A stretch of DNA of 64,000 nucleotides from Syntrophaceae bacterium UBA5764 (lineage in GTDB: Bacteria; Desulfobacterota; Syntrophia; Syntrophales; Smithellaceae): NCBI GenBank assembly GCA_002418825.1, contig DIEW01000015.1, positions 157-64,156 of the forward strand, read 5' to 3'. Below, piece by piece: positions 41,084 to 45,322 of the stretch (positions are counted from its first letter, which is position 1; each line of letters begins with the position of its first letter). Both the position numbers and the translations under genes were made by a program. Below the pieces are notes generated by a model, which was given only the letters and a program-made list of their open reading frames with translations, did no database searches and was not told where the DNA came from.

Positions 41084-44000
41084 ATGACGCAAAAAGATGA
41101 AGCCTTGGAAAAAAGCGAAGAGTGGTTTTCTTCCGCGCTTAAAGTTAACTTGGAGCGGACTTCCGTTGCCATCGCCATCCCCCCCAAGTACGACCCGCTG
41201 CTTAAAGTGGTGGAAGGCCACTATGGCCTGCAAAGAAAAACAAGAGGGATGTTAACGGAATTATATCATCCCTTTGTCAATTGGGAGCATGTTCTTGCGG
41301 AGCTCACATCTATTTCTATCGGCGATTTTTATGAATATAATCAACATCCGGACGGGTTAACCGCTCTTTCCATTCTGATGAATATATATTTTGACATTAT
41401 TAAATACGCGACGAATGAAGAGGTAAAAGATAGCGCGATACGTTGTCTTTTTGATTTTATCGGTACTGTTCTCGAGAAAAGCGATAGTAAGCTTTCCGGA
41501 AATTTATCCCTGCTTAATGAAAGCATGGATTTTTTTGCCAATTTTACAGATAAAGACAAAGCTGTATTAAAGAAGTGTTCTTCTTACATCAAAAAAACAT
41601 CCAAATTTGTTTTGGATAATAATATAAATATTGCCTCGGATAAAGTCAGTTTTATACTGGATAAAATGTTCAGGATTACTTATGAATTCTGGCTTACTCA
41701 GTCTGATCCTTCTTTATGGTTTGCCGGTGATAAGGGAAAAAATAATAACCAGACAGATGCTTACCAAAATATAATTCATCCGCTCAGCCATCGGTATCTA
41801 TATGGGGCATTGAAAAAACTTGATGATCTGGGTAGCCAAAAGAAAGCAACGGACAAGGAACAAATAAGAGTTTACTTGGAAATGCCGGATTATTTTCAAA
41901 TAGTAAACGGGTATTTCCTGGTTGCCGATGAGCTTGAAAAATCACCTGTTTATCTGGGGCATCAATATCTGGTAAAATTAGACTTTCTTTTCCACATGAT
42001 GAGTGTGCCCGGATTGTCCGATATACACGCTAGTGCTTTGCGCGAAATCAACCGCTGTCTGAAATTGGTTTTTGAACAGGAAGAGAAGGAGAAACTTCAC
42101 GAATTTGTGCGCAAAATATTCGAGTTTCTCAGGAAAAGTCGCTCACGTCATGAATACCGCGGCACAATAATTGATTGTATTACAACGACGGCCAAGGAAG
42201 TTTTCGCGCGCGATTCTCAGGAGCTGGCGGATATCTTTATTGATGAGTTAATCTCGTACGGTTTTCAATATCCAGAATTTAAAGGAACTACCACGGAATG
42301 GCAAGTTCAGGTTAATCCACTCCATGTTGTAAGCATTAGGGCGTGGCTCGAGATTATTTCCTTGAAACCCGGCTGGACAAAAAAACTTATTTCGGCACAG
42401 GTGATCAATTTGAGTATCGGTGGAATTTTTGTGCGTGACACCGATCTTTTGCAAAAAGACATTTCTGTGCTGCTGAATTCCGGTATCGCCCCGGTGTACA
42501 ACTTGGTGAAACAGCTCCTTAGAATATTTCCGGTTTATTTCAAGGAAATAGGAGCAGAAGGAGAGCTGCGCGATATAACAACCGATGTGGATGAGCTTTC
42601 TTACCGCAACGACAAACTGGTGAACTTTCTGCGCAAGCAATCTCATGTCGAAAGCAATAGCATGCTCGTAGAGTTTATGGAGAATATCTTTAATTTTTGG
42701 TACTCCGGTGACAAAGAATGCTTGAAGAGATATCTACCGGAAGAGGTTTATGAGCAGGTAGCGAATTCCGGAGAGTACTTCGATGGTATGCACAAAGCAT
42801 TTATTTACTTACTTTCCTTAGCTCAAAACAACCCCAAAGAATTTATTTCTTGGTCCGAAACAAGATTATCTAAAGAAATCAGCGGTCTTAAAGAAGTTGA
42901 TAAAAGAGATAAAGAACGTGCACGGATGATGGTTCGCATTTATCAACTAATTTACAAAAAATATTTTCCCCAATATGTGGATTTACTGGATGATTTGGAA
43001 GTGGTTTATCTTTTACCCAAAACCGAATTGGCGGCGCTTAGACGAGCATTGAGTGCAAATAATCGGTACAAGAGCCTTATTATCATCCTGAAATTTATGT
43101 CTCTGTTGAAAGAAAGAATTCTTTCCGCCAGGAAAACCGAGCCTTATGAAAATATATATTACAAGCGGCACATTGCGGCCGGTATTCCTTCAATGTACGG
43201 TACCTATAGCGAAGAAAAGTTTGAAGCTCTTGGGCTGACTCTGAGACTGGAGAGTCTTGCGGTGATGCAGATGGAAGAGCTGGTGAAATCTTTAGATCTA
43301 AGAAACATTACAAAGCGGACTATTGCCAAGGTTCACAACTATCTGTGGCTTTTTGTTAAAGCGCTGGAATTGGATGGCATTTCCACGGAAGGCTTGGCGG
43401 CAAAAGTAAGATATATAAGCAGCGCCCTGTCCATCAAACAATTTTCCATGGAGCAGTATGTGGATATCTTCCGCTTCATATCCAAAAGTATACAAAATAT
43501 AATTCATGAATATTATATTGACATTCACAATTCTAATCTGCCTGTTATTATTGGCCAGGTCTTCGAAAAAAATGTCAGCACGAAGATGCGAACCGAGACA
43601 CAAAACGGTGAAGAATTGGTTTATCAGCAATCGGAAAATTTTGTTCGCCGTCTTATTTCTTCGGCGTTTGGTTTACAAACTCTGGATAATTTTGTGAATG
43701 CAGTGGTCGGTGCTCTGAATGCTGAGATGGAAAAAATTAAAGATGAAAATCAGCTTTGGAGAACAGGCGTTTCTTACAATGCGGAGCTTGCCGTTTCTTC
43801 GTTTTACGAAAAGAACAAAAAAGTGGACAATCAAATATTTCTTGGGAACAAGGGGTATTTTCTCAAGGAACTGATTTCCTATGGTTTTAAAGTGCCGCCG
43901 GGCTTTATAATTACCACTGAGGTTTTCCGGGGTTATGATGCCATCATTGATAATGAGAAAATTTTTAATGACTTGCTTGTTCGTATAAACAAGGAAATAG

Positions 44001-45322
44001 TCGTCCTTGAGATAATGACCGGCAGGAGATTCGGCAATCCTCTGAATCCGCTTCTTTTGTCGGTGAGAAGCGGCGCCACGGTATCTTTGCCGGGGATGAT
44101 GAATTCTTTCTTGAATGTGGGTATCAATGAAGTGATAGCGGAAAAGCTTAGCGGCAGAAGAGGTTTCCACTGGGCTGCGTGGGATTGCTATCGCCGATTT
44201 TTACAGACATGGGGAATGTTTCAAGGGTTGAACCGCGATTTCTTTGATGCGATTATCGACGGGTTTAAGTACCGCTACGGAGTGGAAAGAAAAATACAAT
44301 TCTCTCCTGAGCAAATGAAGCAAATAGCTCTTGCTTATAAAAAAGGCATTTTGGACAACGGTATTGAATTGAAGGAAGAGCCTGCTGAACAATTGCGGGA
44401 TGCGATCATGAAAGTTTTTGATTCCTGGTATTCTCAGCAGGCGCAAATTTATCGGCATCAGATGCATCTTTCGGATAAATGGGGAACTGCTGTTATCGTT
44501 CAGGCAATGGTTTTCGGCAATCTCAATGAGCATTCCGGTTCCGGGGTCATCTTTACCCGCGAGCCGAAAAGCGCATCTTCCGACATTACGCTTTATGGAG
44601 ATTTCATTTTTGGCGTTCAGGGTGATGACATTGTTTCCGGTCTGGTGGAGACATATCCAATTTCGGAAAAGCAAAGGTTATCGGAGCGACGGGACTCCGA
44701 AATATCGTTGGAAACGAAATTCCCGGAAATTTATCATGAATTGGTCAGCGTTGCGGAAAAACTGATTCGTGAAAAAGGTTTCAATCATCAGGAAATAGAA
44801 TTTACTTTCGAGGGATCGGGAAAAGACAAGCTATATTTGCTGCAGACTCGCGATATGGATCAGGTGGCGGCGAAGAGATACAAACGGTTTAAAGATACCA
44901 GCTTCCTGCAGTCGACAATATTGGGCACAGGTATTGGAGTGAGCGGCGGTGCTCTTTGCGGCCGGGCAGTTTATACGGAAGAAGATATAAAAAAATTCCG
45001 GAAGGAGGATCCGCAGACATCCCTTATTTTGTTGCGCCGTGATACGGTTCCCGATGATGTTGGAATCCTTCTGCAAGTCGAGGGACTCTTAACGGCAAAA
45101 GGAGGGGGTACCTCGCATGCGGCCGTAACCATTCCGCAGCTGGATAAAGTCGGCGTTGTCGGATTCAACAAACTGAAGGTTCATGAAGCACAGGGATTTG
45201 CCACGATAGACGAATGTAAAATCTGCGCGGGTGATTTTATCTGTATTGACGGATGGAGCGGTATGGTTTATCAGGGTAAACACGAATACGATCCCTTGCC
45301 TTCACGAAATATCAAAATTTAA
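41084..45322 (+). CDS. 1412-aa dikinase-like protein: unknown N-terminal ~900 aa, then a PPDK-type ATP-grasp and a phospho-His swivel domain; no PEP/pyruvate barrel
   Basis: C-terminal blocks GFKVPPGFIITTE, LLLSVRSGATVSLPGMMNSFLNVG, WGTAVIVQAMVFGN, KLYLLQTRD and GGGTSHAAV. The ORF ends 67 codons after the His. Confidence 0.8.
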   Translation: MTQKDEALEKSEEWFSSALKVNLERTSVAIAIPPKYDPLLKVVEGHYGLQRKTRGMLTELYHPFVNWEHVLAELTSISIGDFYEYNQHPDGLTALSILMNIYFDIIKYATNEEVKDSAIRCLFDFIGTVLEKSDSKLSGNLSLLNESMDFFANFTDKDKAVLKKCSSYIKKTSKFVLDNNINIASDKVSFILDKMFRITYEFWLTQSDPSLWFAGDKGKNNNQTDAYQNIIHPLSHRYLYGALKKLDDLGSQKKATDKEQIRVYLEMPDYFQIVNGYFLVADELEKSPVYLGHQYLVKLDFLFHMMSVPGLSDIHASALREINRCLKLVFEQEEKEKLHEFVRKIFEFLRKSRSRHEYRGTIIDCITTTAKEVFARDSQELADIFIDELISYGFQYPEFKGTTTEWQVQVNPLHVVSIRAWLEIISLKPGWTKKLISAQVINLSIGGIFVRDTDLLQKDISVLLNSGIAPVYNLVKQLLRIFPVYFKEIGAEGELRDITTDVDELSYRNDKLVNFLRKQSHVESNSMLVEFMENIFNFWYSGDKECLKRYLPEEVYEQVANSGEYFDGMHKAFIYLLSLAQNNPKEFISWSETRLSKEISGLKEVDKRDKERARMMVRIYQLIYKKYFPQYVDLLDDLEVVYLLPKTELAALRRALSANNRYKSLIIILKFMSLLKERILSARKTEPYENIYYKRHIAAGIPSMYGTYSEEKFEALGLTLRLESLAVMQMEELVKSLDLRNITKRTIAKVHNYLWLFVKALELDGISTEGLAAKVRYISSALSIKQFSMEQYVDIFRFISKSIQNIIHEYYIDIHNSNLPVIIGQVFEKNVSTKMRTETQNGEELVYQQSENFVRRLISSAFGLQTLDNFVNAVVGALNAEMEKIKDENQLWRTGVSYNAELAVSSFYEKNKKVDNQIFLGNKGYFLKELISYGFKVPPGFIITTEVFRGYDAIIDNEKIFNDLLVRINKEIVVLEIMTGRRFGNPLNPLLLSVRSGATVSLPGMMNSFLNVGINEVIAEKLSGRRGFHWAAWDCYRRFLQTWGMFQGLNRDFFDAIIDGFKYRYGVERKIQFSPEQMKQIALAYKKGILDNGIELKEEPAEQLRDAIMKVFDSWYSQQAQIYRHQMHLSDKWGTAVIVQAMVFGNLNEHSGSGVIFTREPKSASSDITLYGDFIFGVQGDDIVSGLVETYPISEKQRLSERRDSEISLETKFPEIYHELVSVAEKLIREKGFNHQEIEFTFEGSGKDKLYLLQTRDMDQVAAKRYKRFKDTSFLQSTILGTGIGVSGGALCGRAVYTEEDIKKFRKEDPQTSLILLRRDTVPDDVGILLQVEGLLTAKGGGTSHAAVTIPQLDKVGVVGFNKLKVHEAQGFATIDECKICAGDFICIDGWSGMVYQGKHEYDPLPSRNIKI

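Follow-up and report, generated by a model that had tools for sequence, protein, structure and literature searches.

What reaction or control can be served by a protein that carries the ATP-handling half of pyruvate phosphate dikinase (PPDK), lacks the half that binds pyruvate, and has instead some 900 additional residues at its N-terminus? This question is raised by a gene in a stretch of 64,000 nucleotides (nt) from Syntrophaceae bacterium UBA5764 (assembly GCA_002418825.1, contig DIEW01000015.1, positions 157 to 64,156 of the forward strand), which was analysed as a whole and is called here the window, with positions counted from its first letter. The best explanation of the data is that this dikinase gene is one member of a widespread and uncharacterised branch of the PPDK/phosphoenolpyruvate (PEP) synthase superfamily which works together with glyceraldehyde-3-phosphate dehydrogenase (GAPDH). 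Since it sits beside a long form of GAPDH across several bacterial phyla, the dikinase probably acts where GAPDH does in sugar metabolism, and it may there catalyse a new reaction or exert a new form of control.

The open reading frame is intact, starts with ATG and encodes 1412 amino acids (aa). An earlier note, made from the sequence letters, had described the product as a dikinase-type protein with an ATP-grasp domain and a swivel phospho-histidine domain but no TIM barrel, and the Pfam search confirms this description: PF01326 and PF00391 are both found (Table 1), while the PEP-utilizers_C family (PF02896), which is the TIM barrel with the catalytic Cys, gives no match. All motifs quoted in that note are present in the translation, which also places the catalytic His codon where it had been put and leaves 67 residues between His1345 and the stop. 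The swivel domain matches the phosphoryl-carrier domain of PDB entry 2fm4 (E 3.6e-14), and the top PDB sequence match of the whole protein is the C. symbiosum PPDK, residues 8-511 of which align from aa 907 (nt 43802) onward with E 1.9e-73 and ~31% identity. In this alignment K923, R995, G1004, E1237, E1239, Q1254, and R1256 of the dikinase correspond to PPDK K22, R92, G101, D321, E323, Q335, and R337, respectively, with Glu in place of D321, while T1343 and H1345 are the equivalents of T453 and H455; all nine positions are invariant or nearly so family-wide.

Comparison with NCBIfam models places the protein within the superfamily and outside each of its named families. The PPDK model TIGR01828 scores 363.4 bits against a cutoff of 843.45, with the best stretch at profile positions 6-340 of 865, whereas the PEP synthase models reach 70-80 bits; TIGR01418 among them gives 69.9 bits (cutoff 739.75), and its match is confined to the surroundings of the swivel domain. 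The models of rifampicin phosphotransferase (RPH) and PigC/RedH score about 30-40 bits, where NF041857/PRK06241 (rifampicin phosphotransferase/PEP-synthase-like) gives 39.5 bits (cutoff 999) over ~85 ATP-grasp residues only. The model NF004531/PRK05878, taken here to represent the truncated PPDKs of the VadK type (~490-530 aa, with ATP-grasp and swivel domains only), scores 303.5 bits (cutoff 456). Judged by these scores the dikinase is much nearer to PPDK than to PEP synthase. Its C-terminal 500 residues are strongly supported as a complete PPDK-type half-machine, with everything needed to phosphorylate a swivel His while turning ATP (and Pi) into AMP and PPi. The label "pyruvate, phosphate dikinase" is, on the sequence, wrong by that family's own definition, with no TIM barrel and a score below the cutoff.

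Some other identities were tried and rejected. A split PPDK with its TIM barrel encoded nearby finds no support, as no PF02896 gene was found in any Pfam-annotated locus, and a role in anti-phage defence was set aside after the dikinase, GAPDH, and acyltransferase gave no PADLOC match at E<=0.01. In the window tblastn detected neither a second PPDK nor gap, pgk, or tpi genes elsewhere, and no riboswitch or leader was matched in Rfam at E <= 0.1 between 38000 and 48500.

The family to which the gene belongs is large. A query with the N-domain only returned 502 proteins, and the best 120 of these are nearly all 1403-1418 aa long, 54-99% identical, and equipped with both PF01326 and PF00391. When 1.84 billion cluster representatives were scanned exhaustively with HMMER, 570 clusters (50% identity) were obtained at E<=0.001, including 194 at E<=1e-30, and at least 563 loci encoding the dikinase architecture were found in the scan of GTDB species genomes. 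All full-length members that were checked, down to 27% identity, consist of the N-domain followed by PPDK without the TIM barrel, and end just past the swivel domain. The host groups include Syntrophales, Syntrophorhabdales, Desulfobacterales, Thermodesulfobacterium, Marinimicrobia, Bacteroidales, and Thermoleophilia; among the hosts named are Smithella, Syntrophus, Syntrophaceae, Syntrophorhabdus, Desulfotignum, Desulfobacterium, Marinimicrobia, a Bacteroidales metagenome-assembled genome, and Thermoleophilia/Miltoncostaeaceae; one host, Thermodesulfobacterium geofontis OPF15 (protein WP_013910164.1), is cultured. In the source databases the members are named "pyruvate, phosphate dikinase", "PEP/pyruvate-binding domain-containing protein", PEP synthase, or "hypothetical", and literature searches found no paper on this dikinase family or on a "phosphoglycerate dikinase", nor any relevant dikinase work in Syntrophus or Smithella. 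The survey of phyletic distribution and conserved neighbours that the earlier note had recommended has thus disclosed a multi-phylum family together with a conserved partner, the long GAPDH, that the note had missed.

Two variations of the architecture were observed. An N-terminal hemerythrin domain (PF01814) is fused to the protein in two clusters, P0134 and P0158/P0286 (L086 6001-10623; a 1540-aa protein), which suggests from the domain content that part of the family may sense O2, iron, or redox state; in the one locus of this variant that was examined (L086) there is no GAPDH gene within 6 kb. Several matches comprise the N-domain only, namely P0097 (950 aa, on a 589-kb contig), P0172 (861 aa), P0037, and P0058, and naturally split or frameshifted versions of the dikinase may exist; since at least P0097 lies on a long contig, a contig end is not the obvious cause of such matches.

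The conserved genomic partner of the dikinase is a long GAPDH. A GAPDH-like gene of the 423-aa type seen in the window was found in 60 of the 80 related loci. In 58 Syntrophales and Syntrophorhabdales loci the dikinase gene is complete and 1.5 kb or more of sequence follows it; long GAPDH lies downstream of the dikinase in 51 of these and is directly convergent with it in 43, at stop-to-stop distances from -6 to 342 nt; in some related loci a canonical 332-aa gap stands directly upstream on the same strand, often with pgk and tpiA nearby. In distant clades long GAPDH (410-424 aa) is found directly downstream on the same strand in 9 of 11 assessable loci and any GAPDH is adjacent in 10 of 11. 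The spacing there is short: 1 nt (L088), 10 nt (L090), 14 nt (L174, Desulfotignum), 21 nt (L085), 48 nt (L089), and 53 nt in L087, which holds the most divergent member (27% identity), while in L083 (Miltoncostaeaceae) the two genes overlap by 4 nt. The T. geofontis-type locus L172 encodes short gap, dikinase, and long GAPDH with a 2-nt gap and then a 4-nt overlap; in L173 the order is dikinase, long GAPDH, short gap, pgk, tpiA, and secG, all on one strand; and in a Bacteroidales locus a canonical gap is placed divergently to the dikinase gene.

The association was also examined in reverse, from 80 metagenomic loci encoding long GAPDH, 9 of which have no room upstream. A dikinase gene stands directly upstream on the same strand in 48 of the 71 assessable loci. 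The remaining 23 are without a dikinase gene; pgk follows the long GAPDH in 13 and tpiA in 9 of them, and in many the long form takes the place of gap in a gap-(GNAT)-pgk-tpiA operon. Because the dikinase-less loci hold it in such operons, the long GAPDH is, as far as sequence and gene order can tell, a genuine working GAPDH that handles glyceraldehyde 3-phosphate (GAP) and 1,3-bisphosphoglycerate (1,3-BPG), and the dikinase occupies a position like that of phosphoglycerate kinase (PGK). The recurrence of long GAPDH, often with gap, pgk, and tpi, as neighbours across phyla thereby assigns the dikinase to the triose-phosphate node within central metabolism.

Another gene that recurs beside long GAPDH codes for a small acetyltransferase of the GNAT type (RimI-like, ~150 aa). 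It is directly downstream of the long gap, before pgk where that is present, in 11 of the 23 dikinase-less loci (L114, L115, L126, L133, L141, L142, L146, L148, L151, L157, and L162) and in two dikinase loci (L172 8550-8984 and L173 7465-7917) it closely precedes the gap/dikinase genes; its recurrence may hint at acetylation control of long GAPDH. In the latter two loci the dikinase/GAPDH genes (L172 8997-15405; L173 362-17628, on a 3.3-Mb contig) come directly after an lptA-lptB-rpoN-hpf-(ptsN)-rapZ-(EIIA-Man/EIIB) cluster and the GNAT gene.

The partner itself belongs to a distinct GAPDH subfamily of 410-425 aa. Seven long GAPDHs taken from dikinase loci, one of them in the window and six in distant lineages, show 49-62% identity to the reference sequence and have their insertions in common, at least six of which are conserved, including one of ~28 residues before WYDNE. 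Their TIGR01534 scores are 273-302 bits (290.3 for the window) versus a cutoff of 367.2 and 434-436 bits for the short gap neighbours; since they score below the type I GAPDH cutoff, the subfamily may be under-annotated or annotated only generically. They resemble type I GAPDH in the Rossmann N-domain and the catalytic C-domain but differ from it in the insertions, the lower score, and the loss of Asp32. The catalytic Cys149 and His176 are kept together with Thr179, Thr208/Gly209, Arg231, and WYDNE, with the motifs SCTTT, IHAVTNTQ, STGAA, and IRVP, and because Cys149, His176, Thr179, Thr208, and Arg231 are among these residues both phosphate sites (Ps and Pi) are retained. In GAPDH Asp32 binds the adenosine ribose of NAD and specifies this cofactor. 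In the long form "VNDL" is changed to "VN.GR..G" (VN.GRE.GTG) with an insertion, and this loss suggests use of NADP(H) or a dual specificity.

The earlier statement that the ~900 N-terminal residues hold no recognised motif is upheld: aa 1-905 have no match in Pfam (E<=0.1), in NCBIfam (E<=0.01), or in a PDB profile search (E<=10), and no known domain was found that would turn the protein into an already described enzyme. In P0256, P0258, and P0270, which diverge most from the other members, the first part (aa ~1-380) has been replaced or fails to align. The core contains three family-wide motifs, the first of which is kept at 90% or more across 57 full-length members, down to 27% identity. 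The invariant positions are G447..D452-x-D454-L-x-Q457 in motif 1, P483..GAEG..R496..T500..D503..R508-x-D510..F515-x-RKQ-x-H521 in motif 2, and E689..KRH696-x-A..IPS703-x-YG706-x-Y-x-E710..F713..G717..R721 in motif 3, and this cluster of Arg, Lys, His, Asp, and Glu looks like a putative site for a phosphorylated or otherwise anionic ligand.

An AlphaFold2 (AF2) model of aa 1-905 is an all-helical solenoid with a predicted local distance difference test score (pLDDT) of 77, and a model of aa 380-1412, based on a more diverse alignment of 62 sequences, reached pLDDT 88.7 and a predicted template modelling score of 0.85. In the latter the two strands of motif 3 are well defined (model residues 309-317 and 322-330, i.e., aa 688-696 and 701-709; pLDDT >90), and the PPDK part superposes in Foldseek at 3.1 A on 1kbl/1dik, which represent the state where the ATP-grasp has the His domain docked on it; to the maize PPDK conformers, in which the swivel domain lies near the PEP/pyruvate domain, the model fits at only 13-15 A. 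The fold search with this model retrieved RPH, HpeI, and PEP synthase, and Enzyme I was not among the matches. For the N-domain, the search against the PDB gave nothing beyond generic karyopherin/CRM1- and HEAT-like solenoid repeats with template modelling scores of at most 0.18.

Table 1. Coordinates of the dikinase gene, its domains and motifs, and the neighbouring features in the window.
Feature	Residues	Nucleotides	Strand	Remarks
MddA-like membrane methyltransferase gene		38230-38964	-	
hgcB		38983-39306	-	NF040864
hgcA		39317-40453	-	NF040863, 460 bits
marR		40466-40945	-	Between dikinase gene and hgcA
Divergent intergenic region, marR-hgcAB/dikinase		40946-41083	.	138 nt, face-to-face promoter-like sites
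Dikinase-like gene	1-1412	41084-45322	+	N-domain, PPDK-type ATP-grasp, swivel phospho-His; full-length homologues 1335-1540 aa, same architecture
N-domain (unannotated)	1-905			Ahead of ATP-grasp
N-domain, variable helical part	1-379	41084-42220	+	Lower conservation; all-helical in AF2 model
N-domain, conserved core	380-905	42221-43798	+	Helical with one beta-hairpin; conserved as strongly as catalytic domains; candidate acceptor or partner site
Family-wide motif 1	447-457	42422-42454	+	G..RDTDL.Q.
Family-wide motif 2	483-526	42530-42661	+	P..YF.EIGAEGELR..T..D....R.D....F.RKQ.HVESNS.
Family-wide motif 3	689-723	43148-43252	+	ENIY.KRHIAAGIPSMYGTY.E.KF...G...RLE; beta-hairpin in model
PPDK-type nucleotide-binding (ATP-grasp) domain	920-1267	43841-44884	+	Pfam PPDK_N PF01326, E 9.5e-30
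Swivel phospho-histidine (PEP-utilizers mobile) domain	1314-1392	45023-45259	+	Pfam PF00391, E 3.4e-10
Catalytic His codon in GGGTSHAAV	1345	45116-45118	+	Equivalent to PPDK His455 and VadK His422; invariant in family
Acyltransferase-3 gene		45378-46616	+	Pfam PF01757; strongly T-rich coding strand
Long-form GAPDH paralogue gene	423 aa	46688-47959	-	Gp_dh_N and Gp_dh_C; TIGR01534 290 bits, below 367 cutoff

As to the reaction itself, it is tentatively proposed from sequence and gene order that the dikinase may be an ATP/Pi-driven His-swivel enzyme interconverting 3-phosphoglycerate (3-PG) and 1,3-BPG for its GAPDH partner. A fuller version, in which it would be a 3-PG/1,3-BPG dikinase forming or using pyrophosphate (PPi), held in complex with a dedicated long GAPDH, and serving many anaerobes as a bypass of PGK, is possible but doubtful. 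The ATP-grasp domain would bind ATP, and also Pi by homology with PPDK rather than PEP synthase; His1345 would be pyrophosphorylated and then mono-phosphorylated with release of AMP and PPi. The swivel domain, tethered only via its N-terminal linker as in rifampicin phosphotransferase, may then bring the phosphoryl group to the N-domain core, where the invariant motifs at aa ~447-526 and 689-723 could form the receiving site. With the carboxylate of 3-PG as acceptor the overall reaction would be ATP + Pi + 3-PG <-> AMP + PPi + 1,3-BPG, the labile 1,3-BPG being passed to, or received from, the co-encoded long GAPDH, perhaps an NADP(H)-using one, and in the reverse direction ATP would be made from AMP and PPi.

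This acceptor is proposed because the coupling to long GAPDH is of a consecutive-step kind with translational overlap, because the dikinase has a PGK-like position in operons, because the partner keeps both phosphate sites, and because transfer from phospho-His to a carboxylate has precedent in succinyl-CoA synthetase and ATP-citrate lyase. According to textbook energies, ATP -> AMP + PPi yields about -45.6 kJ/mol and hydrolysis of 1,3-BPG about -49.4 kJ/mol, so that the proposed reaction would be near equilibrium (~ -4 kJ/mol toward ATP) and, when run toward gluconeogenesis, easier than the PGK reaction by ~15 kJ/mol. Sulfate reducers and syntrophs, to which many of the hosts belong, generate AMP and PPi stoichiometrically, and for this reason the reverse reaction could regenerate ATP. 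For the "large or complex" acceptor suggested in the earlier note, and for a connection with the cell envelope, there is no indication.

Several facts weigh against a phosphoglycerate reaction. PGK coexists with the dikinase, in L173 even in the same gene string, and the dikinase therefore does not fill a missing step. The predicted alpha-solenoid of the N-domain would be a fold met more often in protein-binding modules than in enzymes that act on small molecules, and the hemerythrin-sensor members without an adjacent GAPDH look regulatory. In addition, gene adjacency cannot tell "next pathway step" from "acts on the GAPDH protein", and the sole characterised truncated PPDK, VadK, is a regulator binding nearby-encoded enzymes (PMC13400623).

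VadK (M. tuberculosis Rv1127c) is a PPDK reduced to the ATP-grasp and swivel domains, which autophosphorylates at His422 in an ATP- and Mg-dependent manner; in pull-downs it brings along PrpC and PrpD, whose genes lie within a few genes of its own (PMC13400623). On this precedent the dikinase could be a phospho-regulator that makes no metabolite: His1345 would be autophosphorylated, the helical N-domain would bind the neighbouring GAPDH paralogue or paralogues, and GAPDH activity, assembly, or isoform choice would be tuned via phosphorylation-dependent binding or protein phosphotransfer. Such a regulator is the main rival, only slightly less probable than the phosphoglycerate reaction. The same coexistence with PGK, the hemerythrin fusions in two clusters, and the restriction of N-domain fold matches to HEAT- and karyopherin-like solenoids agree with it, as does gene order, since two GAPDH isoforms flank the dikinase in L172 and the dikinase heads the gapL-gap-pgk-tpiA string in L173. 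The stop/start overlap with the GAPDH gene suggests a stoichiometric complex, for which the extra surface insertions of long GAPDH are possible docking sites. However, VadK has no N-domain and the dikinase falls below the NF004531 cutoff (303 vs 456 bits); the invariant Arg/Lys/His/Asp/Glu clusters of the N-domain, kept down to 27% identity, resemble an active site more than an interface; and long GAPDH also lives without the dikinase in gap-pgk-tpiA operons. Furthermore, non-protein substrates are used by the known three-module dikinases PPDK, PEP synthase, rifampicin phosphotransferase, and glucan-water dikinase.

A second rival retains phosphotransfer to a substrate but changes the acceptor, which might be a different carboxylate or hydroxyl metabolite, with the GAPDH paralogue taking up the product, or else a phosphocarrier protein, in which case the dikinase would be an ATP-driven analogue of Enzyme I of the phosphotransferase system (PTS). 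The architecture fits substrate-phosphorylating dikinases, as the retrieval of RPH, HpeI, and PEP synthase by the fold search indicates, and the dikinase follows lptB-rpoN-hpf-(ptsN)-rapZ-(EIIA/EIIB) clusters in L172 and L173; the dikinase-type swivel domain is homologous to that of PTS Enzyme I. This option is nevertheless rather improbable: the rpoN/PTS neighbourhood occurs in 2 loci only while GAPDH adjacency is general, Enzyme I is missing from the fold matches, and a long GAPDH with both phosphate sites, found elsewhere in the company of PGK and TPI, favours GAP and 1,3-BPG, i.e., the proposed phosphoglycerate reaction, over an exotic substrate.

It is still less probable that the protein is a true pyruvate/PEP dikinase in which the helical N-domain has replaced the TIM barrel and which is co-expressed with GAPDH simply because both serve gluconeogenesis. 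In its favour, true PPDK is what the ATP-grasp and swivel domains resemble most, PPDK and PEP synthase are the names given in databases, most hosts are anaerobes with a gluconeogenic metabolism, and in L172 and L173 the operon is shared with gluconeogenic genes. Nonetheless, the PEP/pyruvate barrel is absent with none encoded nearby, the scores are far under the family cutoffs, and the tight coupling concerns GAPDH, which stands three steps from PEP, and not enolase, pgm, or pyruvate-forming enzymes; to swap a working barrel for a 900-aa solenoid while keeping the same reaction would also be unparsimonious. A decayed or split PPDK, i.e., a pseudogene or fusion artefact without a function of its own, which the absence of the third PPDK domain might suggest, is hardly credible for an intact reading frame of 1412 codons whose architecture and length are the same in hundreds of species, with a strongly conserved N-domain and invariant catalytic residues.

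The remaining neighbours in the window appear to be local. On the minus strand a mercury-methylation cluster of four genes (marR, hgcA, hgcB, and the MddA-like gene; 38230-40945) is present. The earlier note took the dikinase gene to be divergent from the hgc promoter; a divergent unit does exist, but marR lies between the dikinase gene and hgcA. The whole marR-hgcA-hgcB-MddA-like unit is found also in the two closest relatives, L002 and L003, and in L031 and L032 the hgcA-hgcB pair with marR stands on the other side of the GAPDH gene. A functional link between the dikinase and hgcAB/marR, to which the earlier note had drawn attention as neighbours, was rejected on these grounds, the adjacency being limited to the nearest relatives and the side being opposite in L031 and L032.

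In the divergent intergenic region two promoter-like sites, each identified by consensus match only, face each other: a minus-strand site at 40964->40937 (TTGACA-16-TATAAT, 12/12 sigma-70 consensus) and a plus-strand site at 40958-40987 (TTGTCA-18-TATTAT). AAGGA is located 11-15 nt 5' of the dikinase ATG at 41084. At the marR edge a 7-1-7 palindrome, GTTGTAT-T-ATACAAC at about 40932-40946, overlaps the minus-strand promoter-like site, and this overlap looks like a putative MarR operator common to marR-hgcAB and the dikinase gene. The true start of marR is probably further downstream than the called TTG at 40945, which would fall inside the promoter.

The acyltransferase-3 gene has no tblastn counterpart in any of the 80 related loci; it is an insertion specific to this lineage, separating the dikinase gene from that of GAPDH, and stands outside the module, and a functional link with it was rejected accordingly. 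A stem-loop, GGCCGTAT...ATACGGCC, was observed at 46628-46655 between the acyltransferase-3 stop and the GAPDH stop. The AT-richness of the dikinase and acyltransferase-3 genes, noted earlier by eye, is borne out by calculation, with GC contents of 0.418 (0.401 in the N-domain) and 0.383, respectively, against a window mean of 0.465, while hgcA has 0.512, the GAPDH gene 0.494, and the flanking genes 0.45-0.58. Since dikinase genes of relatives show the same modest deficit, the low GC looks like a property of the protein and not a mark of recent transfer.

If the phosphoglycerate reaction is true, the core map of glycolysis and gluconeogenesis gains a new reaction, a dikinase alternative to PGK, in parallel to PPDK and PEP synthase standing beside pyruvate kinase. 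Sulfate reducers, syntrophs, and some Bacteroidales and Actinomycetota would then possess a PGK bypass that drives gluconeogenesis at low energy charge or regenerates ATP from AMP and PPi, which bears on how energy-starved anaerobes producing AMP and PPi by sulfate activation and acyl-CoA ligases avoid energy waste. If instead the protein is a regulator, it represents a large second case, after VadK, of PPDK halves recruited as phospho-regulators, and its target would be GAPDH, which is among the most thoroughly studied of all enzymes. Either way, the mislabel carried in hundreds of genomes leads reconstructions of metabolism in Smithella, Syntrophus, Syntrophorhabdus, Desulfobacterales, and Thermodesulfobacterium astray, and with T. 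geofontis OPF15 in culture the hypothesis is open to direct testing.

Set against known systems, the dikinase stands out in its superfamily by a new domain, a candidate for binding the acceptor or a partner, and by a strongly conserved coupling to GAPDH that is likewise new. With PPDK (EC 2.7.9.1; TIGR01828; 1kbl/1dik) it shares an ATP-grasp and swivel collinear with PPDK 8-511 and the catalytic residues, but it differs in the absence of the TIM barrel, in the 905 extra N-terminal residues, and in having GAPDH as genomic partner. Like VadK it combines a PPDK-derived ATP-grasp with a swivel His and is encoded near metabolic enzymes, whereas VadK, of ~490 aa, has no N-domain and is partnered by enzymes of the methylcitrate cycle, not by GAPDH. 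The analogy drawn earlier to dikinases with a separate acceptor module is a reasonable one: RPH (NF041857, PRK06241; 5hv1), HpeHI, phenylphosphate synthase, and glucan-water dikinase types have in common with it the ATP-grasp, the singly tethered swivel His, and a separate acceptor module. The similarity to them is nevertheless weak (~40 bits), the acceptor module of the dikinase is N-terminal and unrelated, and the dikinase is found in the setting of central metabolism, where theirs is the metabolism of antibiotics, aromatics, or starch. PGK would be a functional analogue only, provided that 3-PG is the acceptor: there is no homology, the dikinase route would lead from ATP to AMP + PPi via phospho-His while PGK converts ATP directly to ADP, and PGK is present in the same genomes as the dikinase; yet the two would share the interconversion of 3-PG and 1,3-BPG and the GAPDH-adjacent operon position that pgk holds in the dikinase-less long-GAPDH lineages.

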